This document shows, one piece after another, positions 1,723-59,494 of a stretch of DNA of 64,000 nt. The stretch comes from Desulfosudaceae bacterium (GTDB lineage Bacteria; Desulfobacterota; Desulfobacteria; Desulfobacterales; Desulfosudaceae): assembly GCA_963674745.2 (NCBI GenBank), contig CAXXDV010000001.1, positions 2,304,001 through 2,368,000 on the forward strand. Reading direction: 5' to 3'. Each line of letters begins with the position of its first letter. Position 1 is the stretch's first letter. The notes beneath the pieces were generated by a model. The model did not search any database and had not been told where the DNA came from. It was given only the letters and a program-made list of their open reading frames with translations. The translations under genes and the position numbers were made by a program.

Positions 1723-1745
1723 ACACCAAAAAAGGAGTTTAAGAA

Positions 1746-2285
1746 ATGAGACGAACGATTATTCAGATTGCTGGAATAGTGATTACGCTTTTAATCTGGG
1801 CGGGCGCCGGAATGGCGGCTGATGTCGCTAAAATTGGCGTGGTTGATTTTCAGCGGTTTCTGACGGAATCCAATATCGGGCAGGCAGCTCAGGAGGAGAT
1901 TGAGACCGAAGGCGCCCGAATGGAGAAAGACCTTAAAACCCAGGGAGAAGCCATAGCCGCCTTGGAAAAAAAGCTGGAAGCGGACGCCCTGGTGGTCAGT
2001 GAGGAGAAACGGGAGTCGCAACTTCGAGAATACAGGATAAAAATCGGTGATCTAAAAGCACTGCAACAGAAATATACGATGGCTTTGAAGAAAATGGAGC
2101 AGGAATTGATCGCCAGGGTTCAAAAAAAGGCTTCGACACTGGCTTCGGAACTGGGCGAAAAGGAAGGGTATCTTTTGTTGATCGAAAAGACGGCGGTCAT
2201 TTATCATCCGGCTGCCATTGATGTGACCGACGAGTTGATCCAATTCGCCAACGCAAAAGAGAACAAAACTGAAAATTCTCAATAA
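1746..2285 (+). CDS. skp: OmpH/Skp periplasmic chaperone
   Basis: Signal peptide, KIGVVDFQ start, coiled-coil body, DVTDELI end; canonical position between bamA and lpxD. Confidence 0.93.
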   Translation: MRRTIIQIAGIVITLLIWAGAGMAADVAKIGVVDFQRFLTESNIGQAAQEEIETEGARMEKDLKTQGEAIAALEKKLEADALVVSEEKRESQLREYRIKIGDLKALQQKYTMALKKMEQELIARVQKKASTLASELGEKEGYLLLIEKTAVIYHPAAIDVTDELIQFANAKENKTENSQ

Positions 2286-2335
2286 GCCTAATGGCCAGAG
2301 GCAAGCAGAGGTAAAGGCTGAAAAGGCGTGGAAAA

Positions 2336-3373
2336 ATGAAATTACCGCTTAAGGAAATAGCCGCCATGGTGGGCGGTATGGTCCGGGGCAATCCCGATCA
2401 TGGGATTTCCGGTGTGGCGCCTTTCGAACGTGCCGGAGAGGAAGATATCACGCTGGCCGGCAGCGCGACATACTGGAATGATCTGGATCGTACGACCGCC
2501 GGCGCCTTGATCGTACCCCAGGGGGTTGACTGCGGCGGTAGAAACGCAATCGAAACCGATAACCCGCAGGCGGCTTTTACCAAACTGATCAATGCCTTTG
2601 CCGCAAAAAAGAGACCCGGTTGCGGGATCGCCCAGCAGGCATGTATCGGCCGCAATTTTTCCTGCGGGCAGGCTGTACATATATCCCCGGGGGTTGTTAT
2701 CGCCGATGACGTAACGCTGGGAGACCATGTTGTTATCTACCCGGGCGTTTTTATCGGGGAAGGCGTGACCATCGGCAGCGAAGTCGATATTCATGCCAAT
2801 GCTTCTGTCATGTGGGGCTGCGTAATCGGTGACAGGGTTATTATTCAGGCCGGTACGGTGATCGGCAGCGATGGCTTCGGCTATAAACGGGACGGTGATC
2901 AATATCTCAAGATGACGCATACCGGTATTGTTCAGATCGATGATGACGTTGAGATCGGGGCCAACAATACCATTGACCGCGGCACGTTTGATAAAACCTG
3001 GATAAAATCCGGGGTTAAAACCGACAACCTGGTGCATATCGCACACAATGTTTCGGTCGGTGAGAACACGATCATTGTGGCCCAGTCAGCCATTGCCGGC
3101 AGTGTTGTCATCGGCAGGAATGTCGTAATCGCCGGGCAGGCCGGTATCAGTGATCATCTTGAGATCGGTGACTTTGCCATTATCGGCCCCCAGGCCGGTA
3201 TTGCCAAGTCCGTTGGGGCTGGAGATGTCGTTTCCGGCACGCCGGGAATGCCCCACAAGCTGTGGCTGAAAACCCATAGCCTGATCACCCGGTTGCCCGC
3301 GATTAATAAGAAAATAAAATACCTGGAGAAAAAGGTGACCGAACTGGTGACCGGGTTGGAGAAAAATGAATGA
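2336..3373 (+). CDS. lpxD: UDP-3-O-(3-hydroxyacyl)glucosamine N-acyltransferase
   Basis: Hexapeptide repeats; IGSDGFGY, DDVEIGANNTIDRG and DNLVHIAHNV motifs. Confidence 0.97.
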   Translation: MKLPLKEIAAMVGGMVRGNPDHGISGVAPFERAGEEDITLAGSATYWNDLDRTTAGALIVPQGVDCGGRNAIETDNPQAAFTKLINAFAAKKRPGCGIAQQACIGRNFSCGQAVHISPGVVIADDVTLGDHVVIYPGVFIGEGVTIGSEVDIHANASVMWGCVIGDRVIIQAGTVIGSDGFGYKRDGDQYLKMTHTGIVQIDDDVEIGANNTIDRGTFDKTWIKSGVKTDNLVHIAHNVSVGENTIIVAQSAIAGSVVIGRNVVIAGQAGISDHLEIGDFAIIGPQAGIAKSVGAGDVVSGTPGMPHKLWLKTHSLITRLPAINKKIKYLEKKVTELVTGLEKNE

Positions 3374-3824
3374 GATGAGAATTGATATCAATAAGATCAT
3401 CTCGGTGCTGCCCCAGCGATACCCTTTTATTATGATAGACCGGGTGATCGACTATGTTCCGGATCAAGAGATAACCGCCGTGAAGAACGTTTCTGCCAGT
3501 GACCCCTGGATGGCCGGACATTTTCCGGACAATCCCGTTATGCCCGGGGTCCTGATTCTCGAGGCCATGTGTCAGGCCGGCGGTGTGCTGGTCAATCTGT
3601 CCAATGAAAAAGCAGCAAGATACCTGGCCGGGATGGATAAAGTAAGGTTCAGAAAAAGGGTCATCCCCGGTGACCAGCTGGTCATCCACGGAAAGGTCCT
3701 GAAAAGAAAGTTGAACATGATTAAAATGGAAGTGTCCGCCACGGTTGACGGAACGCTGGTCGCGAAAGCACAGATTATGGCCAGCACAGGAGATGAAAAT
3801 GATACATCCGACAGCGATAATTGA
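3366..3824 (+). CDS. fabZ: 3-hydroxyacyl-ACP dehydratase
   Basis: RYPF..IDRV, GHFP..PVMPGVLILEAMCQ and VIPGDQL motifs; lpxD-fabZ-lpxA synteny. Confidence 0.95.
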   Translation: MNEMRIDINKIISVLPQRYPFIMIDRVIDYVPDQEITAVKNVSASDPWMAGHFPDNPVMPGVLILEAMCQAGGVLVNLSNEKAARYLAGMDKVRFRKRVIPGDQLVIHGKVLKRKLNMIKMEVSATVDGTLVAKAQIMASTGDENDTSDSDN

Positions 3825-4569
3825 TTCCAGTGCTCAAATAGCGTCAGACGTGGAGGTCGGACCCTACGCCATTATTGCCAATGATGTCGTCATCGAGGCG
3901 GGCACGAAAATCGGTCCCCACGTGGTGATTGATGCCTACACCAGTATCGGTCCGGAATGCCGGGTCTATCAGTTCGCCTCAATCGGCGCGCCACCTCAGT
4001 CGGTCAAGTATGCAGGCGAAAAAACAGAGGTGAAAATCGGTCGGGGCTGCGCCGTTCGGGAGTTCGTTACCATTCACCGGGGAACCAAGTCCGGTGGCGG
4101 TGTAACGGAAATCGGCGAGGACTGTATGCTGATGGCCTATACCCATATCGCCCATGACTGCCGGATAGGGAACCGGGTACTGTTTGCCAATAACGCTACC
4201 CTGGCCGGACATATTTCAGTCGGGAATAACGCCACCATCGGGGGGCTGGTTGCCATTCATCAGTTCGTTAATATCGGGAGCCACGCCTTTATCGGCGGTA
4301 AGTCGGCAGTCGTTAAAGATGTGCCCCCCTACGTAATCGCCGCCGGGGACCGGGCCAGACTTTATGGTTTGAATACAGTCGGGCTGAAGCGGAATAATTT
4401 TTCCCAGGAAACCCTTTTGTCTCTGAAAAAAGCCTACCGGATTATTTTTAGAATCGGCCTGACCTTAAATGAAGCCATTGAAAGGGCTTATGCCGAAGTT
4501 GAGCAGACCCCTGAAGTGGAGACTTTTTTGGCGTTTATTAAATCCTCCCGTCGCGGCATCACACGCTAA
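3799..4569 (+). CDS. lpxA: Acyl-ACP--UDP-N-acetylglucosamine O-acyltransferase
   Basis: MIHPTAII start with AGGAG 6 nt upstream; REFVTIHRGT, HIAHDC, HQF and DVPPY motifs. Confidence 0.97.
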   Translation: MIHPTAIIDSSAQIASDVEVGPYAIIANDVVIEAGTKIGPHVVIDAYTSIGPECRVYQFASIGAPPQSVKYAGEKTEVKIGRGCAVREFVTIHRGTKSGGGVTEIGEDCMLMAYTHIAHDCRIGNRVLFANNATLAGHISVGNNATIGGLVAIHQFVNIGSHAFIGGKSAVVKDVPPYVIAAGDRARLYGLNTVGLKRNNFSQETLLSLKKAYRIIFRIGLTLNEAIERAYAEVEQTPEVETFLAFIKSSRRGITR

Positions 4570-4606
4570 ACGGTTTTTGCCGGCGGCCGGGTAAAATGGT
4601 TACAAG

Positions 4607-5437
4607 ATGAAAATTGGACTGATCGCGGGCGGGGGCAGCTTTCCGCTGGAATTCGCCGATGCCGCCCGAAAAAACGGCAAACAGGTCTTCACCGTCGCCT
4701 ATCACGGCGCGGCCGACCCCGACATCGGGCATCGGGTGCATGCCGTCGAGTGGCTCTATGTGGGGGAGATTGAAAAGCTGATCCGGTTTTTTAAGGAAAA
4801 TGATGTCAGGGAAACCGTTATGATGGGTGGTGTCGACAAGCGCGTCATGTTTTCAGATTTCAGACCGGATGAGACCGCTTTAACCCTGATTGCCGGACTG
4901 ACCGAAACACATGACGATGCATTGCTGAGAGGTTTCGCGGCGGTTCTGGAAGAAAACCATATCGCGGTCCGCGCCTCCACATTCTTGCTGCCGGAACTGC
5001 TTGCGCCGGAAGGTTGCTGGACGAAAACCGCTCCGGACGAAGCCCAGCAGTCGGATATCGCTATCGGCTGGAAAACGGCCAAGGCCATCGGCGACCTGGA
5101 TATCGGGCAATGCGTGGTGGTGGAAAAAGGGTCGGTCCTGGCCGTGGAAGCCATTGACGGCACGGATGCCACTATCAAAAGAGGAGGCGGACTGGGCGGT
5201 GGTCAGGCTGTGCTGGTAAAGGTCAGCAAACCGAATCAGGATATGCGCTTTGATGTCCCTTCAGTCGGTCCGGCCACGATTCAAACCATGCACGAGGCAG
5301 GGGTCAGGGTTCTGGCCATGGAGACCGGAAAAACCGTCGTTTTCGACAGGGAAAAAATGATTGCCATGTCAAACGATTATAACATAGCCATTGTCGGGTT
5401 GAGTGAGGAACAATGTCAGAGCTTCGCGTCGGCGTAA
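4607..5437 (+). CDS. lpxI: UDP-2,3-diacylglucosamine diphosphatase LpxI
   Basis: GLIAGGG.FP, DIGQ.VVV, AVEAIDGTD and KP.QDMRFDVP motifs; lies between lpxA and lpxB. Confidence 0.93.
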   Translation: MKIGLIAGGGSFPLEFADAARKNGKQVFTVAYHGAADPDIGHRVHAVEWLYVGEIEKLIRFFKENDVRETVMMGGVDKRVMFSDFRPDETALTLIAGLTETHDDALLRGFAAVLEENHIAVRASTFLLPELLAPEGCWTKTAPDEAQQSDIAIGWKTAKAIGDLDIGQCVVVEKGSVLAVEAIDGTDATIKRGGGLGGGQAVLVKVSKPNQDMRFDVPSVGPATIQTMHEAGVRVLAMETGKTVVFDREKMIAMSNDYNIAIVGLSEEQCQSFASA

Positions 5438-6369
5438 TCGGGTCCGGATATCTGGGAAAATTTCACGCTGAAAAATATGCTGCCATGGATGGTGTGACCT
5501 TGGCCGGTGTGGTTGATGTTGATGCCGTCGCCGCCGGAGCGGTGGCAGACCGTTTGGGGTCGACCGCCTATACGGATTACAAGGATCTGTTCGGCCGGGT
5601 GGACGCGGTCAGTATTGTCGTGCCTACGCCGGCGCACTGTCCGATCGCGTTGGCTTTTCTGGAAAACGGTGTTGATGTTATGGTGGAAAAGCCCATGACC
5701 ACCACCCTGGAAGAAGCTGACCGGTTGATCGAGCTGGCTGAGAAAAAAGATCGCATTATTCAGGTCGGGCATCTGGAACGGTTCAATCCTGCTGTTCACC
5801 CGCTTAAGAACATCGTTGATCGGCCCCTTTTTATCGAATCTCATCGGTTGAGCATTTATAAAACCCGGGGTACGGATGTCAGCGTGGTGCTGGACCTGAT
5901 GATTCACGATATCGATCTTATCTTGAATTTTGTAAAGTCCGAGATAACCGATATCCGAGCGGCCGGCGTATCCATCATTTCAGACAGCGTGGACATCGCC
6001 AATGCCCGGCTCGAGTTTGAGAGCGGTTGTGTGGCCAATATTACCGCCAGCCGGGTCTCCAACCGCAGTGAACGAAAAATCCGATTGTTTCAGAAGAGCG
6101 CATACATATCTGTCGATTTTGCCGACAGCGGTATCACGGTGGTGAAAAAGGGTGATGCCGACAACGGCAGTGGACCCATCCCGGGCATGAACGCGCAGCA
6201 GCTTTCTTTTGAAAAATGGGATGCCCTGGAACAGGAACTCAAAGCCTTTGTCGATTGTGTCCGGCACCGCAAGCGCCCCCAAGTCTCAGGTCACGAGGGA
6301 CGCAAAGCCCTCCAGACGGCTCTGGCCGTGATGGAACGGATAAACCAGACGGGAAAGCGATTTGAATAA
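5413..6369 (+). CDS. Gfo/Idh/MocA oxidoreductase, GnnA-like (putative UDP-GlcNAc 3-dehydrogenase)
   Basis: GVIGSGYLG Rossmann motif, VEKPM, VGHLERFNPA, DLMIHDID; embedded in the lpx operon. Confidence 0.85.
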   Translation: MSELRVGVIGSGYLGKFHAEKYAAMDGVTLAGVVDVDAVAAGAVADRLGSTAYTDYKDLFGRVDAVSIVVPTPAHCPIALAFLENGVDVMVEKPMTTTLEEADRLIELAEKKDRIIQVGHLERFNPAVHPLKNIVDRPLFIESHRLSIYKTRGTDVSVVLDLMIHDIDLILNFVKSEITDIRAAGVSIISDSVDIANARLEFESGCVANITASRVSNRSERKIRLFQKSAYISVDFADSGITVVKKGDADNGSGPIPGMNAQQLSFEKWDALEQELKAFVDCVRHRKRPQVSGHEGRKALQTALAVMERINQTGKRFE

Positions 6370-7528
6370 TCAACTTCCAACCAAACCGGTGCCTCCCGCC
6401 AGATGCGTCATGATATCGGCGGGTGAAGCTTCCGGTGATTTGCATGCCGCCAATTTGATCCGAAGTATGCGCAAAAAATGGAGCGATCTTTTTTTCTGCG
6501 GCATCGGCGGCGCGGCCATGCGCCAGGCCGGGGCCAAGATTGTCGTGGACGCCGATCAGCTGTCCGTGGTCGGTATTACAGAAGTTCTGGCCCGGTTGCC
6601 GGCCATTTTAAATGGACTGGATGCCGCCAAAAAAGTGCTTATTTCCCGCCTGCCCGACCTCCTTATTTTGATCGACTTTCCGGATTTTAATTTCAAGCTG
6701 GCCGCTGTTGCCAAACAGCAGGGGATCCCGGTTTTTTATTATATCACACCCCAGGTATGGGCCTGGCGTCAGCGGCGGATTCACACCATCAAGCGGCTGG
6801 TTGACCGGGCCGCGGTCATTCTTCCTTTTGAAGAGGATTTTTTCAGACAGCATGGTGTTCCGGTTTCCTTTGTGGGCCATCCCTTGCTGGATTCAGGATA
6901 CGAAAATCTGCCGGTGCCTGCTGAGCATTCACCGCAACTAAACGCGCCCGTTGTCGGTTTTCTGCCCGGTTCCCGCACCCGCGAAATCAGGAAACTGCTG
7001 CCGGTCATGCTGAACGCGGCCATGGCCATCAGCCGTCAGCATGATCAGGTCCGGTTTCTGGTGTCCAAAGCGCCGTCTGTTTCCCCTGACGTGTTTGACC
7101 GGATTGCCGGGCAATTTTCCGGCCGGGTAAATTTTGAGATCGTGACCGAAAAGGTGGACGTTATTTTAAACCAGGCCACCCTGGTGGTGGCGGCCTCGGG
7201 AACGGTTGCCCTGGAGGCGGCCCTGACCGCTACGCCCATGATCGTGGTTTATAAAGTATCGGCCTTGAGTTACTGGCTGGGCAAGCTGCTGGTTCGCTTG
7301 CAGCATGTCAGCCTGGTCAACCTGATTGCGGGCAAAGAGGTCATCTCCGAACTGCTGCAGGGCGACGCCACGCCTGAAACTATTGTTGCGCATGTGTCGG
7401 CATTGTTAAATGACCCTGACAAATTACAGCAGGTCCGAACTGAGTTGCTGGACGTGCGCCGGAAACTGGGCGGTGGCGGGGCTTCCGACCGGGCGGCCGG
7501 GATTGCCCTTGAGATGCTGGAATCATGA
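6362..7528 (+). CDS. lpxB: Lipid A disaccharide synthase
   Basis: AGEASGDLH, IDFPDFN, PQVWAWR, FVGHPL, LPGSR..E and SGT..LE motifs. Confidence 0.97.
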   Translation: MNNQLPTKPVPPARCVMISAGEASGDLHAANLIRSMRKKWSDLFFCGIGGAAMRQAGAKIVVDADQLSVVGITEVLARLPAILNGLDAAKKVLISRLPDLLILIDFPDFNFKLAAVAKQQGIPVFYYITPQVWAWRQRRIHTIKRLVDRAAVILPFEEDFFRQHGVPVSFVGHPLLDSGYENLPVPAEHSPQLNAPVVGFLPGSRTREIRKLLPVMLNAAMAISRQHDQVRFLVSKAPSVSPDVFDRIAGQFSGRVNFEIVTEKVDVILNQATLVVAASGTVALEAALTATPMIVVYKVSALSYWLGKLLVRLQHVSLVNLIAGKEVISELLQGDATPETIVAHVSALLNDPDKLQQVRTELLDVRRKLGGGGASDRAAGIALEMLES

Positions 7529-7676
7529 TCGAAGGGTGCTCATAAAGGTTTTTTTCGGAGGTTGATTCCATATTTAATTTGGGGATACATATGGGGTGTC
7601 AGGCATCCCAAAGGGCACACGGTGTGAACAGAAATGGATTTTCTCAACGCAGCAGGGCTAAAAGGATAATTTTTTA

Positions 7677-9422
7677 GTGGCACTATTTAAAATAGAGAAT
7701 CGTTACCGGAACCTGCTGGGTTATATCAAGGACAACCGGTTCAGGCTTTACGGGGCCATGTTTTGCATGCTGATTACGTCCGTAAGCACGGCCGCTACCG
7801 CCTATCTGGTCAGACCGGTGATTGACAAGATATTTGTGGCCCATGATGCGTCCATGCTGAAACTGATCCCCCTGGCGGTGATTGCTGTGGCATTTCTTCA
7901 GGGGCTGGGCATGTACGGTCAGGAGGTTCTGCTGATTCGCGTGGCCCAGGGGATTATCAAGGAGTTCCGGGACAGGCTTTACGCCAGGATCACCACCCTG
8001 CCGCTGGCTTTTTTCCATGAGAAAAAGACCGGGGTGCTTATGTCCCGGATCACCAATGACATTCAACTGATCAAGTCGGTGGTGGCCCATGCCATTACCT
8101 ATCTTGTCCGGGACGTGTTCACCCTGATCGGCCTTTTGTGCGTGACTTTCTACCAGATATGGCAACTGGCTTTTGTGGCCTTTGTGGTCCTGCCGTTGCT
8201 TTATTATCCCATCGCCGCCATCGGCCGAAAGGTAAGGCGCATATCCCGGCGTTCCCAGACGCGGGTCGGAGATATCAATTCCTTTCTTCATGAGACCTTT
8301 GTGGGCAACAAGATCATCAAGGCCTTCGGCCGGGAAGAATATGAAATCGATCGATTTTATGAAAAATCCGCCGCTCTCTTTGATATTGAAATGAAAAATA
8401 TCAAGACCAAGGCCCTGACCTCACCGATTGTGCAGGTCCTGTCCGGCCTGGGGGTGGCCTTGGTGATCTGGTTCGGCGGTTCCCAGGTGATGAGCGGTGT
8501 TTATACCTCCGGACAGTTTCTTTCTTTTCTGGCAGCGGTCATGCTCATGTACGCGCCGTTAAAACGACTGTCCAGCCTTAACGCCCAGGTCCAGCAGGGC
8601 ATGGCGGCGGTTGACCGGGTGTATGAAATTCTCGAGGTGCAATCGGATATTGTCGAAGCCCCGGACGCGGTTGAAATTAAAGGCAGGCATCACCGGGTGA
8701 CCTTTGATAAAGTGGATTTTTCTTATAATGGCCAGGAGCAGGTTCTGACCAATATCGACCTTGATGTGGCGCCGGGTGAAGTGATTGCCATTGTCGGTGC
8801 CAGCGGCGGCGGCAAGACCACCCTGGTCAACCTGATTCCCCGTTTTTACGACGTTTCATCCGGCGCGGTCCTGGTCGACGGGCTGGATATCCGCCAAGCA
8901 ACCATCGCCTCGTTGCGGAAACAGATTGCCATTGTGACCCAGGAGCCGATTTTGTTCAACGACACCATTCGTGCCAATATTGCTTACGGCAACCCGGATG
9001 CTTCAGAAGAGGATATCATCCGGGCGGCCAAAGATTCCTATACGTATGATTTCGCAATGCGTTTTCCCGAGCAGCTGGATACGGTCATCGGGGAGCTGGG
9101 CGCGAGGCTTTCCGGGGGACAGAAACAGCGGTTGTGTATCGCCCGCGCCCTGATCAAGGATGCGCCGATTCTGATACTGGACGAGGCCACGTCTTCGCTT
9201 GATACCGAAGCCGAGGCCATTGTTCAGAAAGCCCTGGCCAATCTGATGAAAGGCCGGACGACATTCGTTATCGCCCATCGGCTTTCGACGGTCAGCCACG
9301 CCGATCGGGTGATCGTGATTTCAAACGGGAAAATATCCGAGCAGGGCAAACACGACGAACTTTTGGCCCTGGGAGGGGATTACTACCGCTTATGCCAGAT
9401 GCAGTTTAAAAACGGCGGCTGA
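7677..9422 (+). CDS. msbA: Lipid A/core flippase ABC transporter
   Basis: TM domain plus NBD (GASGGGKTT, LSGGQKQR, ILDEATS, IAHRLST); directly after lpxB. Confidence 0.9.
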   Translation: MALFKIENRYRNLLGYIKDNRFRLYGAMFCMLITSVSTAATAYLVRPVIDKIFVAHDASMLKLIPLAVIAVAFLQGLGMYGQEVLLIRVAQGIIKEFRDRLYARITTLPLAFFHEKKTGVLMSRITNDIQLIKSVVAHAITYLVRDVFTLIGLLCVTFYQIWQLAFVAFVVLPLLYYPIAAIGRKVRRISRRSQTRVGDINSFLHETFVGNKIIKAFGREEYEIDRFYEKSAALFDIEMKNIKTKALTSPIVQVLSGLGVALVIWFGGSQVMSGVYTSGQFLSFLAAVMLMYAPLKRLSSLNAQVQQGMAAVDRVYEILEVQSDIVEAPDAVEIKGRHHRVTFDKVDFSYNGQEQVLTNIDLDVAPGEVIAIVGASGGGKTTLVNLIPRFYDVSSGAVLVDGLDIRQATIASLRKQIAIVTQEPILFNDTIRANIAYGNPDASEEDIIRAAKDSYTYDFAMRFPEQLDTVIGELGARLSGGQKQRLCIARALIKDAPILILDEATSSLDTEAEAIVQKALANLMKGRTTFVIAHRLSTVSHADRVIVISNGKISEQGKHDELLALGGDYYRLCQMQFKNGG

Positions 9423-10129: not shown

Positions 10130-10366
10130 TTACTTCACCCGTCACCCGCGTCCTTTCAAGCCAATGGTGACCTTGTCTTGCTCCACGATAACCGGAATCT
10201 TCCGGTTTCCATCTGAATATCTGAGCATTTCGTCCAGATTGGCCGGGTCTGCCAGGACATCAACGTAGCGTACGGAATTTCCTTTTTTCGTATACGCCTC
10301 ACGGGCCAGGGTGGTGAACGGTCAGGTGCTCTTCCCGAAGATTATGATTTGATGGTTTTGATTCAT
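10130..10366 (-). CDS. Glutaredoxin-like selenoprotein, 78 aa, with two in-frame UGA codons read as Sec15 and Sec75; absent from the ORF track
   Basis: Manual translation: MNQNHQIIIFGKST-U-PFTTLAREAYTKKGNSVRYVDVLADPANLDEMLRYSDGNRKIPVIVEQDKVTIGLKGRG-U-RVK-TAA. UGA at 10324-10322 occupies the Grx active-site position (UPFT); IP cis-Pro motif present; ATGA overlap with the PP2C stop. Confidence 0.85.
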
Positions 10367-11175
10367 AAGCTTTTATTCAGAAGACGCCCGATACGTGAAA
10401 AAATATTACGCTGCTTGTCCACGTCTTTTATCTTGAGCACAATTACCGTAATGTTATCCAGACCGCCCTTTTCATTGGCCAGATCAACCAGCTTTTTACA
10501 GGCAGCGGCCGGTTTGTCGCCCAGGGCCGTATCCAGGATAACCTCTTCTGAAATCATGTCGGTCAGGCCGTCTGAACAGAGAACGAAGGTGTCTCCGGCC
10601 AGGCCTTTCTGCTCGACAGTATCGGGCGTTACTTGAGGCTTGGTGCCCACGGCCTGGGTCAGCATATGTTTGAATTCTTCATTCAGCGGCTCACCGTCCG
10701 GGTTGGCCGCCTTGGCGGCAGAAGCGACCGTATGCAGGGTCGATATCAGTTCAATCTGATCATTACGGATTAAAAACACCGGGCTGTCACCGACATTGGC
10801 CACGATAACTGTCTTGTCAGTCAAGAAAACAGCCGAGATTGTCGTACCCATTCCCGCGTATTTCGGATTATCAGAAGCCAGGTCGAGAACGCTCATGTTG
10901 GCCAGATTAATCCCGGCCAGCAGCCGGTTGGCCTGTTTGGAAAGCCGCCGTCGGGTATCCGGTAATTCCTCGGGGTTTTTATGATCTGTAATGTTTTTGA
11001 TATAGCTCAGGATGGTCTCGGCGGCGACACGGCTGGCCACTTCTCCGGCAGCGTGTCCGCCCATACCGTCGGCTACCACATACAGCCCCAAGGCCTCGTC
11101 AATCACAAAAAAATCTTCATTGGCCTTTCTTTTTCTGCCGGTATCTGTCAGGCCCGCAGACTCAACGATAAGCAT
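10363..11175 (-). CDS. PP2C/Stp1 family Ser/Thr protein phosphatase
   Basis: TDTGRKR..NED, VADGMGGH, GMGTT, NVGDS, LCSDGL and GG.DNIT motifs. Confidence 0.96.
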   Translation of the reverse strand: MLIVESAGLTDTGRKRKANEDFFVIDEALGLYVVADGMGGHAAGEVASRVAAETILSYIKNITDHKNPEELPDTRRRLSKQANRLLAGINLANMSVLDLASDNPKYAGMGTTISAVFLTDKTVIVANVGDSPVFLIRNDQIELISTLHTVASAAKAANPDGEPLNEEFKHMLTQAVGTKPQVTPDTVEQKGLAGDTFVLCSDGLTDMISEEVILDTALGDKPAAACKKLVDLANEKGGLDNITVIVLKIKDVDKQRNIFSRIGRLLNKSL

Positions 11176-11189
11176 AAGGTGCCCTTTTG

Positions 11190-13724
11190 TTATTTGTTGC
11201 TTTGTTGTCTCTTGCTCCGGGCAGCGTCTATTTTCTGGCCGAGTGTTCTCAAGTGTTGCGCCATCTGCCCGGCTGACTGGTATCTTTGTTCCACCTTTTT
11301 GGCCATTGCCTTGTTGAGAATGGCGACCAGCGGTTTGAATATTTTGGGATTAATCTGCTGTGGGTTGGGATGGGGTTCGTTCAATATTTTGTGCATCAAC
11401 TCGGCCGGGCTGCTTCCCTTAAAGGGGACTTCTCCTGTCAGTAATTGAAACATCATGGTGCCCAGAGAAAAAATATCACTCCGGCCGTCCACTTTTTTGC
11501 CTGTAATCTGCTCCGGAGACATGTAATAGGGTGTCCCCTTGATGATGCCCGTTTTGGTCTGTGAAGAAGCCGTTATCCTGGCTATGCCGAAATCGGTTAT
11601 TTTAATTTTATTGCCTTTGATCAACATGATATTGGCCGGTTTGATATCGCGATGGACGATACCTTTCTGATGCGCGTAGTCCAGCCCTTCCGCAATGTCC
11701 GCGATGTAATCAATAACCCGACGCATGGGCAGCAGGTTTTTTTTCTTGGTATATTTGTCGAGGTCATCTCCTTCCAGGTACTCCATGGCAATGTAAGCCA
11801 GGTCCTGCTCTTCACCGGCGTCATATATGGTCACGATGTTGGGATGGGACAGGGTGCCGGCACTTTCGGCTTCCCGGAAGAATTTGGCCTTCATTTCCCT
11901 GGCTTCGTCTTCGTCGAAATCTTCGCTGAATTTGACGGTTTTAATAGCGGTCGTCCGGTTAATGCGGGGGTCCTGGCCAAGGTAGACAGTGCCCATGGCA
12001 CCTTTGCCGAGCTGCTTCATGATTTCATAGCGGCCCAGCGTGGGCCGGACGCCTGATGTACCGGCCATGTCATCGCCGCCGCTGCCGATAAAGTCGCTGC
12101 CGAACACCATGGTCTCGCTGGCCAGGTTCAGTTTTTTCTTCTTATCGGTGACGTCTTTGAACTTACTGTCATGTTGTTCGATGTAACCATATACCGCCGC
12201 TGCCTTGTTGAATTGGCGTTTGCGCTCGTAGTCCAGGGCCAGGTTGTAAAGCACGTCTTTCATTTCATCGTCGACCGGTACTTTTCTGAATTTATCAAAG
12301 GCCATATCCAGCATGCCCTGGGATTGGAAAGAGATGCCCAGCATACGGTTGGTCTGCGCGGATTCACCTTCGACCTTTTCCTTGCCCGCTTCGGTCACAA
12401 AATAATTGATGGATACAATACCGGTATAACCAACGATCAGAAGAAGAAGCGGGTAAATCACCTGAATCCAGATATTTTGCATCAGGAAAAAATAAGCCGA
12501 ACCACCGATCAGCAGGCAGACAAAAAAGAAAAAGGTAGTTCCGGCAATAAGGGCCTTCATCCTGGGAAAACCCCATGTAATCAACAACCCCAGTAATACG
12601 ATGGCGATCCCCTGGCTTTTACCGCCAAGCGGCATTTCCCGGATGAAATTCTGGTTCAAAATGGACCATATGATATTACCGCTGAAATCACCGAAGGAGG
12701 TCCCGGCCGAAACCGGCGTGCTTAAGGGGTTGGCCAGTCCCTTGGCAGAAAAGGATAGCAGTACGATTTTTCCCTTGAACAGGCGCAGGGGGATTTTATC
12801 GTTTATAACGTCAAAGAACGAGTAATGCTTAAACGCCTCATCGGAACCGATGAAGTTGATCAAAATTTCCGAAGAGGATGTCAAGGGAATGGTGATGTCT
12901 TTTAAATATATTTTATCCCCTATTTTTGCAGTGATTTCAGAGGGTTTGATGTTCAGATAGTTGGCCGCGATCACCAATGAATAGGAAGGAATGAACAAAT
13001 CGTTGAACTGATAAAACGGGCGTTCTCTTCTGAATGTGCCGTCTTGATCCGGGGCATAATTGATATGTCCCATGCCGGCGGCGGCTTTCTGGAAAGCGGC
13101 GATGGGAAGGGTGACATCACCGGATTGGGGATGCCTGAGCGGCCCGGAAGGGGCATGGCTGACGTTAATGGCCTGTGAAGCGATGACGGTGTTTTTTCCT
13201 GTTTCATCTTCTTCCGGCAGCAGGGTGTCTTTGAAAAAAACGGGTAAGATCACATTCCCTGCGTTTTTCATGGATTTTGCAAGCTTGGAGTCCCGGTCAA
13301 GATTTTCCCTGGCATCGGAAACGGCATTTAAAAAGGCCGGTGCTTTCGGGTCATCGAAAAAAGATGATTTGAAAATATCCTCCAGCCTGTCAATCTCCAG
13401 CAAACCGGCATTTTCTTCGGCCTCGCTGTAGATGATATTCAGACCGATAACAGCCGGTTTTTCCGTTGCGATTTTGTCTATACAGGCGGCGATCATTGAC
13501 CGGGGCCAGGGCCAGCGGCCGAGGTTTTCAATGGATTCATCATCAATTTCGATAATAACGACCCGGTCCGTGGCTTCGGCCTGAATTTTCAACTTCATCC
13601 AGGTGTCGTAAAGCTTCAACCCCAGCGTGTCAAAAAAATCAATGCGGATAAATGCCAGGAGTAAAAAAAGGATAGTGACCGTCAGGCCAAAAACAAGTGT
13701 GGGATTTTTTTTTATCCAATTCAT
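11190..13724 (-). CDS. Membrane Ser/Thr protein kinase with N-terminal CHASE2 sensor domain
   Basis: CHASE2 signature (IDDESI..LGRWPWPR), TM helices, then a Hanks kinase domain (GKGAMG, AIK, HRDIKPAN, DFG, GTPYYMSPEQ). Confidence 0.95.
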   Translation of the reverse strand: MNWIKKNPTLVFGLTVTILFLLLAFIRIDFFDTLGLKLYDTWMKLKIQAEATDRVVIIEIDDESIENLGRWPWPRSMIAACIDKIATEKPAVIGLNIIYSEAEENAGLLEIDRLEDIFKSSFFDDPKAPAFLNAVSDARENLDRDSKLAKSMKNAGNVILPVFFKDTLLPEEDETGKNTVIASQAINVSHAPSGPLRHPQSGDVTLPIAAFQKAAAGMGHINYAPDQDGTFRRERPFYQFNDLFIPSYSLVIAANYLNIKPSEITAKIGDKIYLKDITIPLTSSSEILINFIGSDEAFKHYSFFDVINDKIPLRLFKGKIVLLSFSAKGLANPLSTPVSAGTSFGDFSGNIIWSILNQNFIREMPLGGKSQGIAIVLLGLLITWGFPRMKALIAGTTFFFFVCLLIGGSAYFFLMQNIWIQVIYPLLLLIVGYTGIVSINYFVTEAGKEKVEGESAQTNRMLGISFQSQGMLDMAFDKFRKVPVDDEMKDVLYNLALDYERKRQFNKAAAVYGYIEQHDSKFKDVTDKKKKLNLASETMVFGSDFIGSGGDDMAGTSGVRPTLGRYEIMKQLGKGAMGTVYLGQDPRINRTTAIKTVKFSEDFDEDEAREMKAKFFREAESAGTLSHPNIVTIYDAGEEQDLAYIAMEYLEGDDLDKYTKKKNLLPMRRVIDYIADIAEGLDYAHQKGIVHRDIKPANIMLIKGNKIKITDFGIARITASSQTKTGIIKGTPYYMSPEQITGKKVDGRSDIFSLGTMMFQLLTGEVPFKGSSPAELMHKILNEPHPNPQQINPKIFKPLVAILNKAMAKKVEQRYQSAGQMAQHLRTLGQKIDAARSKRQQSNK

Positions 13725-20476: not shown

Positions 20477-21160
20477 TTAATCGTTCATGGTGTAGCATTC
20501 CCTGATGCTTTCCGTGAGGGTCTGGCTCATATAGTCGGCAATGTTACGGTCATAAACGGCAGTATGTTCAAACGTTTTTTGGGCCATTAAATAGCGGGTA
20601 TTAAGAGAAATTTTTCCTTCTGTGCGTGTCATTTCGTCCAGAACGGTGGTGTAGTCATCGGGATTGACCACCGGTGTGACCCGGATAAAATTCTTTGCTG
20701 CCGCCCGCAGCATACAGGGGCCGCCGATATCGATGTTGCCCCGGGCCTGCTCGGGTGTGACATCCGGTTGCGCAATGGTACGGGCAAAGGGGTAGAGGTT
20801 CACCACTACCATATCGATGGTGATGGCGCCGGTACGTGCCATATCTCGGATGTGGTCAGCGTTGTATGTTTCCGTAAGCAGACCAAGATAGATTTTAAAA
20901 TCAAGGGTTTTTACCAGGCCGCCCTGCGTCTCCGGTTGCCCGGTATAGTCTGCGACCTGGGTCAGTCGCGATTCGGATTTTTCCCCCAAAAATTTTTGAA
21001 TGGCTGAAAATGTACCCCCGGTGGAAAGAATATTAATGTTCGGATTGATATTGATAAGGCCTGATACAAAACCATCCAATCCGGTTTTGTCTGAAACACT
21101 GACCAGCAGATTGTTGATTGGAATCAGGTCGTCTATACGGCTGACAACGTTAATGCTCAT
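20477..21160 (-). CDS. Stand-alone IMP cyclohydrolase (PurH N-terminal MGS-like domain)
   Basis: LVSVSDKTGL, STGGT, VKTL, VVNLYPF and IDIGGP..LRAAAKN motifs; ends at 227 aa with no AICAR transformylase domain. Confidence 0.88.
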   Translation of the reverse strand: MSINVVSRIDDLIPINNLLVSVSDKTGLDGFVSGLININPNINILSTGGTFSAIQKFLGEKSESRLTQVADYTGQPETQGGLVKTLDFKIYLGLLTETYNADHIRDMARTGAITIDMVVVNLYPFARTIAQPDVTPEQARGNIDIGGPCMLRAAAKNFIRVTPVVNPDDYTTVLDEMTRTEGKISLNTRYLMAQKTFEHTAVYDRNIADYMSQTLTESIRECYTMND

Positions 21161-21299
21161 GGTCGTTTACCTCCATAGTTTCGTACTTAGTAAGGATGAT
21201 ATGCGTTCCTGTGATTCTTTTCTGATGTTACCGCAAAAGCATGGTTGACTGCGAGCTGTTTTTTTAATATCAGACTATTCCTGCCGATTTTTACTATTT

Positions 21300-21380
21300 T
21301 GTACTGTTAAATAGGACAGTGTCTAATTATTTAGGACAAACTATCGGTTTTTTATCGTGCCTGTTAAACGGTACAGGACA
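21300..21380. promoter_or_regulatory. Three putative enhancer (bEBP) binding sites, TGTN-N11-GACA
   Basis: TGTACTGTTAAATAGGACA (21300-21318), TGTCTAATTATTTAGGACA (21320-21338), TGTTAAACGGTACAGGACA (21362-21380), upstream of a sigma-54 motif. Confidence 0.65.
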
Positions 21381-21483
21381 AATCTTAATTTTCATGGGCT
21401 AAGTTACGCCTCTGGGTTTAATTTTGTGAAATTATTTCAGCATTTTATTTTTTTATTAACAAAACGGGGTTTTTACCATTCAT

Positions 21484-21499
21484 TGGCCCGGTAATTGCT
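21484..21499 (+). promoter_or_regulatory. Sigma-54 (-24/-12) promoter
   Basis: TGGCCCG-GTAA-TTGCT against consensus TGGCACG-N4-TTGCW, exact spacing, one mismatch. Confidence 0.75.
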
Positions 21500-21509
21500 T
21501 TAGATATTC

Positions 21510-21753
21510 GAAAGATTACCTGCCCAGCCAGGTATGAGAAAATTAATAAAGAGGTGTTAATTAAGTTATTCAGGAAGCCTGTTAGCCGCGTTTGCCTGCC
21601 GCCAAGGCTTCCTTATTGTACGGTGTGTCTGATTCGTTCATCAGCATCTCCCCAGGTGCTACCGGCACCCCCCCCTCCTCCAGCCGGGTGAGTGAATCAG
21701 GCCACCTACACTTTATAAGCTGTTGCGTATTCCGATACGCAACAGCTTTTTTG
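21510..21753 (+). ncRNA. Candidate structured sRNA (about 240 nt) with C-rich loops
   Basis: Bounded by a sigma-54 motif and a + strand intrinsic terminator; both flanking CDSs are on the minus strand; several strong stems. Confidence 0.7.
21717..21753 (+). terminator. Rho-independent terminator
   Basis: Perfect 14-bp stem AAGCTGTTGCGTAT-tccg-ATACGCAACAGCTT followed by a T-rich tail on the + strand only. Confidence 0.88.
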
Positions 21754-21803
21754 TTTTATGGCTTCGTAAAAAGTCCAAAACAACCCCTTGAATCCTTTTG
21801 TAA

Positions 21804-22445
21804 TTAAGCTTTGCCTTCGTATTCAGTCAGGAAGCGGCTGAAAAATCGTTCCATGAATTCGTGACGGGCCTGGGCCATTTCCCGGCCGCTTGCCGTCAGC
21901 ATTCTGTCTTTGACCCAGCGGAGCTTGACCCGGTATTCCCGGTAGCCGGTATCGTTTTCCGAATATGACGGAACCCGCTCCACGTTGATATCCGGATTGT
22001 GCAGGCAGGCGCCCAGTTCCCCGGCGAAAAGGTAGGCTCTGGCAATGCCGATGGCGCCGATGGCATCCAGTTTATCGGCGTCGAATACGACCTTCGCTTC
22101 CGGGGTTTCAGGTTCAGGCGGTTTCCGAAAACGATGCGAGGCAATGCAGTGAACAATGTTGTTTTTTCGGGCCTCAGAAAAAGGGAATTTCTCCAGTATG
22201 GCCTGGGCCATCTGGGCCCCTTTTTGAGCATGGCATATGGAACCATTGGCACTGTCCTGGTAGCAGCGGCCGATGTCGTGCAACAAGGCCCCGGCCACCG
22301 CTACTTCCAGATCAACCCCTTCGAGAGCGCCAAGGGTTTTTGTCAGGTTCACGACACGTCTTGTGTGTTCCCAATCGTGGCTGCCCCGACCGGCCAGAAA
22401 ATTTTTTTTGGCGATTTCGGCAATGGCCGATTCATGTTTTGTCAT
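21804..22445 (-). CDS. HD-domain metal-dependent phosphohydrolase
   Basis: SHDWEH..RV, LLHDIG, HRF and DADKLDAIGAIG motifs. Confidence 0.92.
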   Translation of the reverse strand: MTKHESAIAEIAKKNFLAGRGSHDWEHTRRVVNLTKTLGALEGVDLEVAVAGALLHDIGRCYQDSANGSICHAQKGAQMAQAILEKFPFSEARKNNIVHCIASHRFRKPPEPETPEAKVVFDADKLDAIGAIGIARAYLFAGELGACLHNPDINVERVPSYSENDTGYREYRVKLRWVKDRMLTASGREMAQARHEFMERFFSRFLTEYEGKA

Positions 22446-38386: not shown

Positions 38387-39112
38387 ATGAACACGTTTAA
38401 AGATAACATGACTGGGAAAAAAATAAAAATCCGGATTGAAAAATACCGGAATTATACCTTCGGCTCATTGGTGCCCCTGGGCACCACTACCCTGGACAGG
38501 CTCATTGATATTTTTGAACATCCTTCGGCCCAAAAGACCAAACGCCTTGAAGGTCGGGCCGCGCCCCGATTCGCTGCTCTGCCCGAGTCCGGTCCGGTTG
38601 CGGTTAAATTTTTTAAACGTGGCGGTTGGCTGTCACGTTTTAACCGGGAACGATATTTGAGAACGTTTAAGACACGATCAAGAAAAGAGTTTGAATTTCT
38701 TTTTTTAGCGGCCGAAGCCGGTGTCCCGGTACCGGCTCCGGTGGCGTTTGCCAGTCGGGGCAGCCTGGTTTATAGAGCCTGGCTGATCACCGGCGCTATA
38801 AAAGAGGCCGTTCCCTTCGTACGACTCTGCCAGGACGAAAAAGACAAAGCCCTGGCACTGATGCCTGAAATTTCAAGTCATATCCGCGTTTTAATTCAAC
38901 AGGGCATTTTTCATGTGGACCTTCATCCCGGTAATATTATTGTCGGTAAAGATGATAAACCGTATATTATTGATTTTGACAAGGCCTGTCAGTGTTCTTT
39001 TACCGGACCAGAACTGGCTGCAAAATATCAGCGGCGGTGGATAAGAGCCGTTAGAAAATACAGCCTGCCGGATGTTTATGGGAATCTGGGTCTTACAGAG
39101 ATTGACAGCTAG
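38387..39112 (+). CDS. Kdo/WaaP (InaA) family LPS kinase, KdkA-like
   Basis: K.FKRGG, R..KEF, HVDLHPGNI and IIDFDK motifs. Confidence 0.85.
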   Translation: MNTFKDNMTGKKIKIRIEKYRNYTFGSLVPLGTTTLDRLIDIFEHPSAQKTKRLEGRAAPRFAALPESGPVAVKFFKRGGWLSRFNRERYLRTFKTRSRKEFEFLFLAAEAGVPVPAPVAFASRGSLVYRAWLITGAIKEAVPFVRLCQDEKDKALALMPEISSHIRVLIQQGIFHVDLHPGNIIVGKDDKPYIIDFDKACQCSFTGPELAAKYQRRWIRAVRKYSLPDVYGNLGLTEIDS

Positions 39113-39174
39113 GTCCGGCCTTGTTATAGCTGTGGGCAAAATAATTTTCCTATTTTTTTAAGGGATTAGATAAA

Positions 39175-40119
39175 TTGCGAGGCAAAATTTCCGGTTTTAT
39201 CGCAGGTATTCCATATCGCCATGTCGCGGCGTTGGGAAGCATCGTCGGCCTGCTGATTTATTTTGTGGATGCCAGGCACCGGCGGATCGTCCGCCGGAAC
39301 CTGTCTTTTGCCTATCCGGATTGGACAAAAGCGCAGATTAAAGAAATGTCCGGCCGGGTTTTTCGGAACCTGGGCACGACCCTGATGGAGATCTGCCAGA
39401 TAACCTGCCTTTCCGGGGACGACATCATCAAAAGAGTGAACATCAAAGGGGAAGAACATCTCCGGGAGGCCCTGGAATATCACAAAGGCGTGGTGCTGGT
39501 GTCCGCCCACCTCGGAAACTGGGAAGTGGTACCCCTGTTCTGGCCGCTGTATTTCAAAACGCCGGTTGCCTTTGTGGCCCGGGAGCTTGAGAACAGGATC
39601 GTTGACCGGTGGGTTTGCCGTCTCAGAAGCCGGTTCGGCGGTGAAGTGATTTATAAAGAAACGGCCATGCCGGAAATGATTCGCGCCTTACGCGCGGATA
39701 AGGCGCTGGCCATATTGATCGACCAGGGCACAAAAAGTTCGCTGGGTGTAAAGATAACGTTTTTCGATAAATTCGTAACCGCCACATCCGGTGCATCCCT
39801 GCTGGCCATGCGTTGTAAAAGCCCGGTACTGCCCGGTTTCTGTATAAGGAATGGTGACGGTACCTTTACCCTGCACCTGAAAAAGCCCATGTTTCTGAAA
39901 CGAAGCGGTGACCTTCGCGCGGATTTGAAGGAAAATACGCAGATCATGACCGGCCTCATCGAACAAATGGTGAGGCAATACCCGGAACAATGGTTCTGGG
40001 TGCACAAGCGCTGGAGGAAGTATTATCCGCATCTTTATCCGGAAGACATTGCCAGGCGTAAAGCCCGGCGGGCGAAAAAAAACAGAAAACGGGAACGCGA
40101 AAGAGCCGTCAATCCATAG
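39175..40119 (+). CDS. Lipid A late (lauroyl/myristoyl-type) acyltransferase, LpxL/HtrB family
   Basis: SAHLGNWE, L.DQ, FF and P.QWFWVHKRW motifs. Confidence 0.9.
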   Translation: MRGKISGFIAGIPYRHVAALGSIVGLLIYFVDARHRRIVRRNLSFAYPDWTKAQIKEMSGRVFRNLGTTLMEICQITCLSGDDIIKRVNIKGEEHLREALEYHKGVVLVSAHLGNWEVVPLFWPLYFKTPVAFVARELENRIVDRWVCRLRSRFGGEVIYKETAMPEMIRALRADKALAILIDQGTKSSLGVKITFFDKFVTATSGASLLAMRCKSPVLPGFCIRNGDGTFTLHLKKPMFLKRSGDLRADLKENTQIMTGLIEQMVRQYPEQWFWVHKRWRKYYPHLYPEDIARRKARRAKKNRKRERERAVNP

Positions 40120-43318: not shown

Positions 43319-44512
43319 TTAATCAGGAGCTTCCGACTTCTGAGCGGCAATACCGGCCGTCAGGGCCAGCGGCAGCCAGAAAAAGAACCAGAACGGACCG
43401 GGGTGGGTAATCACTTTATCCTGGTCGATGAGAATATTACCGGCGCCGAACAGAATCAATGCCAACAGGATGATATCCCCGGTCAGGAAATAGTGGCGCA
43501 GGCTCTCCCTGAAGGCCATGGCCAGCAGAAGCAGAAAAATAAAAAGGGCCGCCAGACCGCCGTACAGGACCATCCCCAGATAGACATTGTGCGGGTGGTA
43601 TAACAAGAAACCGTCGTTTGCCCTTATCTGCTGATCGGTGGTTATGCCTTTGCCGAAGAACACATCCCCTTTGATCATATTGATCGTTTTCTCGGCCAGT
43701 TCGATGCGATAACTCAGCCCCCGCTGGGTCACCGCTTTTTGGATCGAATCGTTTTTTGTGAAAAGGGTTGCACCGAGAATAATGATACAGGCCAGAACGA
43801 TCAGCAGCTTGAAATCCCGTGTCAGCAGGCCGCCGACAATAAACGTGATCAGCAAAATCCCGAGCGGTCCGCGGCTTTGCGTCAGTACAACCGAACCGGC
43901 GACGATCGCCGCCATCATACCGTATAACCACCGGCGTTTACGGTCGGGGGTTTTTTTCATGATATAAAAATATATGATCAGTACGATCATGCCGTAAATG
44001 ATCCCACCGAAAACGGCATTATGAAGCTGGTCTGCGATGTATTCCAGCCGGGCAGCGGGGAAAGGAGCGGCGTGATAAAAATAGAGCATGGAAGCCACCG
44101 CTGTCGCCGTGCCGATCCAGGCCAGAAAAGAGAACAGTTTTTCAACAAACCGGGGACCGGTTAACGACAGTTCCATGGTCAGGCTGAAGAAGACAAACAG
44201 ATAAACCACCTTGCGGATATAATAGGTGGCGCTTTTGTCCCCGGTGTTTTTTTCCCACAGGATGGTCAGCACGAGGTAAACCAGGAGGGCCATGGTGACC
44301 AGCCAGATCCTTGAACCCAGAAAAAACCGGATTTTGGTTTTGTTCAGTGAAAGCAAATAGACCGGAATGATAAGTCCGTAGAACAGGTTGCAATGCAGGC
44401 GGAGATTGGGGGAAACGAAAAAAATCAGCACAAAGAGAAAGTACAGTTTAAGATTAATCTGCTTGTCTTCAACAAAAGCCAGGATGTTTGTCCGTAAGTT
44501 CGCAACGTTCAT
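43319..44512 (-). CDS. waaL: O-antigen ligase family protein
   Basis: About 12 TM segments; TQSRG, R...., G.G and HPHNVYL motifs; inside the LPS cluster. Confidence 0.85.
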   Translation of the reverse strand: MNVANLRTNILAFVEDKQINLKLYFLFVLIFFVSPNLRLHCNLFYGLIIPVYLLSLNKTKIRFFLGSRIWLVTMALLVYLVLTILWEKNTGDKSATYYIRKVVYLFVFFSLTMELSLTGPRFVEKLFSFLAWIGTATAVASMLYFYHAAPFPAARLEYIADQLHNAVFGGIIYGMIVLIIYFYIMKKTPDRKRRWLYGMMAAIVAGSVVLTQSRGPLGILLITFIVGGLLTRDFKLLIVLACIIILGATLFTKNDSIQKAVTQRGLSYRIELAEKTINMIKGDVFFGKGITTDQQIRANDGFLLYHPHNVYLGMVLYGGLAALFIFLLLLAMAFRESLRHYFLTGDIILLALILFGAGNILIDQDKVITHPGPFWFFFWLPLALTAGIAAQKSEAPD

Positions 44513-44547
44513 GTCGGTCGACTTATCCGGTTTAAAGGGTTGATTTT

Positions 44548-59485: not shown

Positions 59486-59494
59486 TTGACTTTT

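Follow-up and report, generated by a model that had tools for sequence, protein, structure and literature searches.

A very probable small regulatory RNA gene, uncatalogued and with a sigma-54-type promoter, in one family of the Desulfobacterales

The locus and its predicted RNA

The window analysed here is a 64-kb stretch of DNA in which a + strand unit at 21510-21753 is located between two minus-strand genes, namely a short PurH-like gene (MGS plus AICARFT N-terminus; 20477-21160) and an HD-domain gene (21804-22445), the latter being convergent to the unit. This arrangement had been described in a first-pass annotation of the same DNA, and all features listed there were recovered at their positions. 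The locus very probably represents an uncatalogued small regulatory RNA gene, equipped with a sigma-54-type promoter and occurring in one sulfate-reducer-type family of the Desulfobacterales. Judged from the sequence comparisons presented below, the + strand unit is an independent, conserved and structured non-coding RNA gene. The gene itself is regarded as solid; what we infer concerns its control and its targets.

The start of the RNA was placed near 21510 on the basis of the promoter position, giving a predicted length of ~240 nt in the window's genome and of ~140-235 nt in its relatives. The 244 nt from 21510 to 21753 were predicted to fold with an energy of -92.8 kcal/mol, compared with -60.19 +/- 4.59 kcal/mol for shuffled sequences (z = -7.10), and none of 200 shuffles folded as well. 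All stems named in the annotation were present in the MFE structure, together with the hairpin loops CCCC (21650-21653) and ACCCCCCCCTCCTCCA (21667-21682). The variable 5' part of the + strand RNA (21510-21616) comprises three predicted hairpins in the MFE fold of the window's genome. Between genera, this part could not be aligned and its hairpins differ, indicating that the three 5' stems (TACCTG, AATTAA and AGGAAGCCT) are specific to the window's genome; they hold as elements of the MFE fold, and do not hold as structures conserved beyond the window's own sequence.

A terminator scan identified an intrinsic terminator on the + strand at 21717-21757 (stem-loop at 21717-21748), composed of a 14-bp stem, a 4-nt loop and a U-tract. 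The stem is followed by the tail TTTTGTTTTA, and the U-tract is found on the + strand only, in agreement with the perfect 14-bp, + strand-specific terminator reported earlier.

Contigs from the RNA libraries of three studies (72-332 nt) were shown to be 90-99% alike to 21572-21778. RNA preparations thus contain this sequence or something closely related to it, which does not amount to transcription as such: the contigs show neither strand nor ends, and such libraries can contain DNA. The depth of four RNA-library runs was zero over 21100-21558 and 21802-21900, where the absence of cover constitutes no evidence.

Across the 64-kb window, a search against Rfam 15 returned no match at the gathering threshold. 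At E values of up to 10, nine weak and unrelated matches were obtained in the window, mostly on the terminator hairpin, the best of these scoring 22.1 bits against a threshold of 100, so that the designation of the RNA as undescribed stands with regard to Rfam. A literature search on sigma-54-dependent and C-rich-loop sRNAs retrieved no description of the present RNA, although unpublished status is not thereby proven.

The conserved three-way junction and its distribution

The sole conserved part of the RNA was found to be a three-way-junction domain on the + strand (21618-21709), as defined by CM matches and covariation. This domain consists of a closing helix (GUACGG/CC(G)UAC), a long helix of 13-14 bp (CUGAUUCAUUC/GAAUGAAUCAG, i.e. 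CUGAUUC.../...GAAUCAG) and two hairpins, one of which is short, while the other carries a long C-rich loop. In a structure-fitted alignment of seven homologues, 92.9% of the cells were paired, compared with 27-35% when the partners were slid by one to three columns. Covariation analysis of this alignment, which was fitted to the model and draws on no more than seven related sequences, identified 10 pairs with changes on both sides, a number that was reached by none of 500 shuffles. RNAalifold independently retrieved the same junction with 12 compensatory pairs, and the junction is thus backed by compensatory changes. Furthermore, CM scores were 30-134 bits on the + strand versus 16-24 bits on the reverse strand, and several of the pairs are of the G-U type, identifying the + strand as the RNA strand by sequence criteria.

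The two hairpin loops of the junction were shown to differ in their conservation. The CCCC loop of the first hairpin (21650-21653, + strand) is kept only in G002, a genome of the same genus, and is replaced by GAAA or an A-rich loop outside the window's genus; its proposed role as a C-rich loop is consequently compatible with the fold and with the same genus, and does not extend to other genera. Conversely, the C-rich loop of the second hairpin (ACCCCCCCCUCCUCCA; 21667-21682, + strand), which represents the proposed seed, consists exclusively of pyrimidines, is rich in C and measures ~14-28 nt in all seven homologues. Its mean probability of being unpaired was 0.86-1.00 in all full-length models (7/7 homologues), and the loop highlighted by the annotation is therefore both conserved and predicted to be accessible. 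The loop motif CCCCCCCUCCUCC was present in five of the seven homologues, with longer C-runs in G008 and G011.

To describe the distribution of the RNA, two CMs were used, the first of which (R1) was built from three copies and the second from all seven. One strong copy was detected by R1 in seven of the 13 genomes of the window's family (G000, G002, G003, G005, G008, G009 and G011), representing four of six genera, and the window's genome was shown to encode a single copy. A BLAST-type search of 61 related genomes recovered the 3' part in two. The convergent HD gene was traced in 12 of the 13 family genomes, and this exposed further RNA copies downstream of it. The family genomes without a match, namely G001, G004, G006, G007, G010 and G012, include a complete one (G007; 99%) and several incomplete ones (71-95%), for which reason 'not found' is not equivalent to absent.

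Beyond the family, the second CM was applied under strict filters to 151 evenly sampled genomes of the order and to as many of the class, where the only match outside the family was a weak one in G082. This match (23.7 bits) was rejected as a homologue, being located in or just after a coding sequence and lacking convincing promoter features, as were two further loci (G005:C150 and G009:C23; 20-24 bits) situated in or just after coding sequences. None of these three loci exhibited a convincing sigma-54 motif or paired upstream sites; two had one loose pattern match each inside coding sequence, and one had a single 20-nt TGT...ACA match. A pattern scan of genome contigs, for which roughly eight matches are expected by chance, yielded five loci: one on an uncultured Desulfobacterales contig, corresponding to G003, and four in MAGs titled Succinivibrio, Acidobacteria, Planctomycetota and Bryobacteraceae. 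A scan of metagenome contigs with a degenerate pattern fitting all seven homologues gave no match. The RNA constitutes a new sRNA family, of a kind already known, that was restricted to a single family of the Desulfobacterales among the genomes searched.

Almost no work exists on the regulatory RNAs of the Desulfobacterales, a group of sulfate reducers and fermenters that abounds in marine sediments. The present locus provides a clean, conserved and testable case, in which the promoter has a recognisable enhancer, the structured domain is well defined and a candidate seed is obvious.

The promoter element and its upstream sites

The only match to a sigma-54-type -24/-12 element in the window, TGGCCCGGTAATTGCT, was located on the + strand at 21484-21499, as proposed in the annotation. 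It fits the canonical TGGCAC-N5-TTGCW, with GG at -24 and GC at -12, and its counterpart in G002 is TGGCCCGGATATTGCT. Taken by itself, the -24/-12 pattern is no more frequent than chance would allow (1.53 expected per window; at least one in 81 of 100 shuffles), and its weight accordingly comes from its context and conservation. A TGGC-N7-TTG motif precedes the RNA at a matching position in all seven homologues, but the GC at -12 is retained in only two of them.

Three enhancer-like sites precede this element on the + strand, each conforming to the TGTN-N11-GACA pattern and starting where they had been reported (21300, 21320 and 21362). Site 1 (TGTACTGTTAAATAGGACA; 21300-21318) is a 19-bp imperfect palindrome with a same-position site in G002 and G009, site 2 (TGTCTAATTATTTAGGACA; 21320-21338) starts 20 bp, i.e. 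~two helical turns, after the start of site 1, and site 3 is TGTTAAACGGTACAGGACA (21362-21380). On both strands of the window, 15 matches to TGTN-N11-GACA were counted, compared with 5.22 +/- 2.32 in shuffles, none of which (0/100) reached 15, and four of these 15 matches fall within the 81 bp from 21300 to 21380. Among the homologues, an exact tandem of 19-bp TGT(C)-N11-GACA sites, repeated every 20 bp, occurs in five of seven (the window's genome, G002, G011, G005 and G008), while G009 carries one exact and one degenerate site and G003 only degenerate forms; an exact third site was not seen in the relatives. The distance from the upstream sites to the -24 element amounts to 156-190 bp. No second copy of the tandem occurs in the 5.5-Mb genome, and the present locus is the only one of 276 sigma-54-like motifs in the genome with at least two such sites 40-300 bp upstream.

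The sites and the promoter element are separated by a spacer (21381-21483) whose description as AT-rich is borne out by its G+C content of 28%, compared with 51% for the window. An IHF consensus with at most one mismatch was not found in 21371-21500. The genome was shown to encode one rpoN and to contain 42 matches to Sigma54_activat, the enhancer-binding-protein (EBP) domain. Of the ORFs of 120 aa or longer that were scanned in the 64-kb window, none was identified as an EBP gene. From the 42 domain matches, 20 response-regulator-type EBPs were compared with NCBIfam models: none reached the cut-off for GlrR (best score 397.9 versus 763 bits), and one was identified as NifA.

This layout closely resembles that of glmY, whose sigma-54 promoter is preceded, at a distance of more than 100 bp, by three TGTCN10GACA motifs to which GlrR binds (PMC3045617). 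The GlmY/GlmZ system of Enterobacteriaceae, with GlrR/QseF, thus has in common with the present locus a sigma-54-type sRNA promoter, a set of three remote TGTC-N-GACA sites (>100 bp upstream) and a spacer that can bend (PMC3045617). However, the spacing within the present sites is N11 (19 bp), i.e. one base longer than the N10 of glmY, and here neither an IHF consensus nor, among the EBPs scanned, a protein at the GlrR cut-off was found. Moreover, the present RNA has no Rfam match to GlmY or GlmZ, even among weak matches at E up to 10, and GlmY, which sequesters a protein, lacks a C-rich loop.

A second parallel is provided by Desulfovibrio vulgaris, for which dedicated EBP-to-ncRNA regulons involving four ncRNAs of unknown function are described, the small RNA being the apparent sole target of each of these EBPs (PMC4641369, PMC3333781). 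The sigma-54 ncRNAs of D. vulgaris Hildenborough (e.g. Dv_sRNA2 downstream of DVU0679), compared here by description rather than by sequence, likewise occur in sulfate-reducing delta-type hosts with many EBPs. They adjoin the genes of their regulators, whereas the ORFs scanned in the 64-kb window included no EBP gene. Qrr (with LuxO and sigma-54) and Pxr of Myxococcus are further sRNAs reported to be transcribed from sigma-54 promoters under an NtrC-type activator (PMC10162802, PMC5568312). Both share the sigma-54-type promoter on an sRNA gene with the present locus, but are unrelated to it in sequence and structure, and no Rfam match to them was obtained.

Proposed mode of action and alternative explanations

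The explanation that we favour, and consider rather likely as a whole, is that of a stand-alone sRNA gene under NtrC-type/sigma-54 control, the C-rich loop of which pairs with G-rich sites in mRNAs. An NtrC-type EBP would bind the paired 19-bp TGT(C)-N11-GACA sites ~160-190 bp upstream and, once bound, would switch on sigma-54 RNA polymerase at the -24/-12 element, with transcription expected to stop at the intrinsic terminator. The functional part would be the 3' three-way junction, predicted to keep the long, pyrimidine-only C-rich loop unpaired. This loop may then pair, in an Hfq-independent manner, with G-rich mRNA stretches, the likeliest sites being extended GGAGG/poly-G Shine-Dalgarno regions, at which ribosome binding would be blocked. 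As modelled, pairing of the exposed C run with G-rich ribosome-binding sites is the most likely mode of action; five of the seven homologues carry the loop motif CCUCCUCC, which is perfectly complementary to strong Shine-Dalgarno sequences.

A search of the genome, which is 99.96% complete, yielded no match to Hfq, and this fits a chaperone-independent, G-C-rich pairing mode. Qrr RNAs are Hfq-dependent. The unpaired C-rich loops of RsaE/RoxS of Firmicutes pair with G-rich ribosome-binding regions independently of a chaperone. RepG of Helicobacter pylori is shorter than the present RNA and is not known to be sigma-54-dependent. The C/U-rich terminator loop of RepG is reported to pair with a homopolymeric G-repeat in an mRNA leader (PMC8295292). 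Like the present RNA, RepG thus has a C/U-rich loop in a terminator structure and a host without Hfq (PMC8295292); it differs in that there is no sequence or CM relationship and in that the loop described here is placed on a three-way junction. The C-rich loops of the 6C sRNA of Actinobacteria are likewise described as pairing with G-rich ribosome-binding regions in a chaperone-independent manner (PMC6486639). Conserved unpaired C-rich loops are shared with 6C and RsaE/RoxS, which differ in fold, lineage and promoter type and gave no Rfam match; the loop of the present RNA is also far longer (14-28 nt). Because the loop and the lack of Hfq match the design of RepG, 6C and RsaE/RoxS, base pairing with G-rich ribosome-binding regions is favoured.

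By analogy, the promoter logic of the locus would resemble that of glmY, Qrr and the D. vulgaris sRNAs, and its presumed effector logic that of RepG, 6C and RsaE. The sequence and structure tests show the RNA to be a member of none of these families. It represents a new sequence family for two known themes, i.e. sigma-54/EBP-driven sRNAs and chaperone-independent C-rich-loop sRNAs, and suggests how post-transcriptional control may run in a genome without Hfq, while opening no new category of mechanism.

The target side of this model is weak. Start regions with at least 8 nt of complementarity to the loop numbered 73 in the genome, a set that is unspecific since the C-rich loop matches any strong Shine-Dalgarno sequence this well. 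The best specific match (12 nt) was located upstream of C1:1010101-1011096 and was the only candidate checked for conservation; it was kept neither in the orthologue of the sister species (G002) nor in four orthologues from genomes without the RNA. Pfam annotation of 20 of the 73 candidates revealed no single theme: two encode DctP-like solute-binding proteins, preceded by G10 and G8 tracts, and other annotated candidates include a TRAP T-component, three giant surface-repeat proteins, a polyketide synthase, a DUF1302 protein and glycogen-related proteins. Poly-G Shine-Dalgarno tracts were observed in only two of 20 DctP-like paralogues; the DctP-like gene at G000:C1:2061952-2063343 is an example of a poly-G candidate.

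Homopolymeric-G Shine-Dalgarno tracts were found in the genome before selected TRAP solute-binding proteins, giant surface-repeat proteins and a polyketide synthase. These tracts allow a more specific extension of the pairing model, to which a small but appreciable chance is assigned: a dedicated, single-target EBP would drive an Hfq-independent poly-C riboregulator, the 14-28-nt loop of which, placed on the junction of the terminator, would read the G8-G10 Shine-Dalgarno tracts of a regulon. As the C-tract and the G-tracts are both prone to slippage, the degree of regulation could come to differ among strains, by drift or by switching. If true, RepG-like, length-dependent control would here encompass an entire regulon and be subject to sigma-54 signalling.

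The features of the loop also bear on a different effector, in which the RNA is real and titrates a protein that binds C-rich single-stranded RNA (e.g. a KH-domain protein or Rho), in the manner of a CsrB/GlmY-like sponge. This possibility is minor, though one to be reckoned with. At up to 28 nt, the loop is unusually long for a seed, and it is constrained in composition rather than in sequence, given that the lengths of the C-runs vary between homologues. Several C-rich loops are found in G002, where an extra C-rich hairpin loop and a C6 terminator loop were observed, and the single candidate checked for conservation yielded no conserved mRNA target. Furthermore, GlmY, which has the closest promoter layout, is described as working via protein sequestration (PMC4152352). 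However, no candidate binding protein was identified, and the occurrence of CCUCCUCC in five of seven homologues is more readily reconciled with the pairing of Shine-Dalgarno sequences. To our knowledge, all well-studied bacterial C-rich-loop sRNAs are pairing regulators. Pairing is also the mode of action given in sources on such RNAs (PMC6486639, PMC8295292), and it remains the preferred reading here.

With respect to control, we regard it as unlikely that the RNA is real but transcribed from a housekeeping-type promoter, with TGGC-N7-TTG and the TGT...ACA sites serving otherwise, for example in regulating the divergent PurH-like gene. The -12 dinucleotide is GC in two of the seven homologues (G000 and G002), GT in four and GA in one. 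The C at -12 of sigma-54 promoters is normally near-invariant, and its absence from five of seven homologues favours this alternative, as does the chance-level frequency of the bare -24/-12 pattern. Minus-strand sigma-70-like hexamers (21325-21296 and 21367-21340) overlap the TGT...ACA sites and face the divergent gene, which is also in line with this alternative. Conversely, no + strand sigma-70-like promoter was found in 20900-22100, and TGGC at -24 is retained with TTG at a fixed spacing in all seven homologues despite unalignable surroundings. A separation of 156-190 bp between sites and promoter, with AT-rich DNA in between, is what enhancer-dependent promoters typically show, and the genome makes heavy use of sigma-54, all of which argues against this alternative.

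It is more doubtful still that the conserved domain is mainly cis-acting rather than a trans-acting regulator, be it as a bidirectional terminator or 3'-end structure of the convergent HD gene, or as a 5' leader. The element is positioned directly downstream of this gene in six of the seven genomes, where synteny is conserved. Its relationship to the terminator varies: a separate terminator hairpin follows the junction in the window's genome and in G002, whereas in G003, G011, G005 and G008 a U-tract is placed directly 3' of the junction domain, so that the junction is itself the terminator. The copy in G009 is without a U-tract and lies ~70 nt upstream of a same-strand ORF, as a 5' leader might. 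However, a terminator requires neither a conserved three-way junction with a pyrimidine loop of 14-28 nt nor a promoter motif or upstream sites of its own. Moreover, the HD gene is not on the strand that carries the U-tract and the G-U pairs, and this gene is present in 11 of the 12 other family genomes, compared with six of 12 for the RNA. A trans-acting RNA thus remains the preferred interpretation.

Finally, the annotation had noted no convincing ORF in the unit, consistent with the finding that its two overlapping ORFs, a proline-rich one of 45 aa with a GTG start (21554-21691) and one of 71 aa with a TTG start (21592-21807), have frames and starts that are not shared by the homologues. 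The coding of a small protein by the unit, e.g. of the 45-aa product, was rejected as very improbable: the C-terminal peptide ...SPQVLPAPPPPPAG is common to the window and G002 in the same frame, but the region in G003 is read in a different frame, the only purine-rich tract is overlapped by the GTG start, the loop lengths differ among homologues by indels that are not multiples of three, and the changes in the stems are compensatory.

Copies of the RNA in related genomes

In the RNA of the sister species (G002), additional C-rich features were identified (L002 1468-1490 and 1606-1640). Its 5' part was found to form an additional hairpin with the loop CCCCCCCCUCCCCCU, and its terminator loop contains C6, such that each molecule carries three or four C-rich loops. 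The RNA-domain copy of another genome of the family, G009, is located on the minus strand (L021 2850-3013) and is not followed by a U-tract. Furthermore, an ORF is present on the same strand approximately 70 nt downstream of this copy, preceded by a GGAGG ribosome site and specifying a product whose N-terminus is hydrophobic and which carries an HEAAHE motif. Because of the missing U-tract and the proximity of this ORF, the G009 copy may act as a leader of the downstream gene.

Further strong terminator hairpins with C-rich loops were observed immediately 3' of protein-encoding genes, in the genome of the window (G000:C1:1572780-1572880) and in G009 (L031 1500-1582). One of these, with a 12-bp stem and the loop AUCCUUCCCCCUCCUCCCCCGA, follows an ORF of 629 aa. 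Such hairpins may represent RNAs derived from 3'-UTRs that function in a style similar to that of the RNA.

Enhancer-like sites, activators and Hfq

Sigma-70-like hexamer pairs were identified on the minus strand (window 21296-21367), where they overlap the enhancer-like sites (window 21300-21380) and point toward the divergent PurH-like gene (window 20477-21160). Based on this overlap and orientation, one activator bound at these sites might also act on the PurH-like gene. The genome of the window contains 42 Sigma54_activat matches, including clusters of enhancer-binding-protein paralogues of approximately 700 aa (G000:C1:495205-523977 and 577189-579780), and one enhancer-binding protein (C1:1675130-1676659) exceeds the NifA cut-off. 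No match to the Hfq domain was obtained in this entire genome (99.96% complete).

G-rich leaders

The same genome encodes 20 paralogues of a DctP-like solute-binding protein of approximately 465 aa (G000:C1:2054558-2063340 and elsewhere), six of them in tandem. Of the 20, two possess homopolymeric Shine-Dalgarno tracts (G10 or G8). A phage-type integrase gene is present in two copies (G000:C3:2710360-2711271 and 2719634-2720545), with an identical G8-containing leader upstream of both.

Other genes of the window

Genes for outer-membrane and LPS biogenesis are abundant in the window (25-9422, 38387-40119, 43319-46050 and 51593-54407), including those encoding Omp85/BamA, OmpH/Skp, LpxD, a FabZ-like protein, LpxA, LpxI and LpxB, as well as an MsbA-like ABC exporter, a lipid A acyltransferase, Kdo/WaaP-type kinases, an O-antigen ligase and heptosyltransferases. 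A Ser/Thr protein kinase of eukaryotic type, 844 aa in length and with a CHASE2 domain, adjoins a PP2C phosphatase (window 10363-13724), and three neighbouring B12-binding radical-SAM genes that are paralogues of one another were also observed (window 54404-55921, 58004-59485 and 59486-60994).
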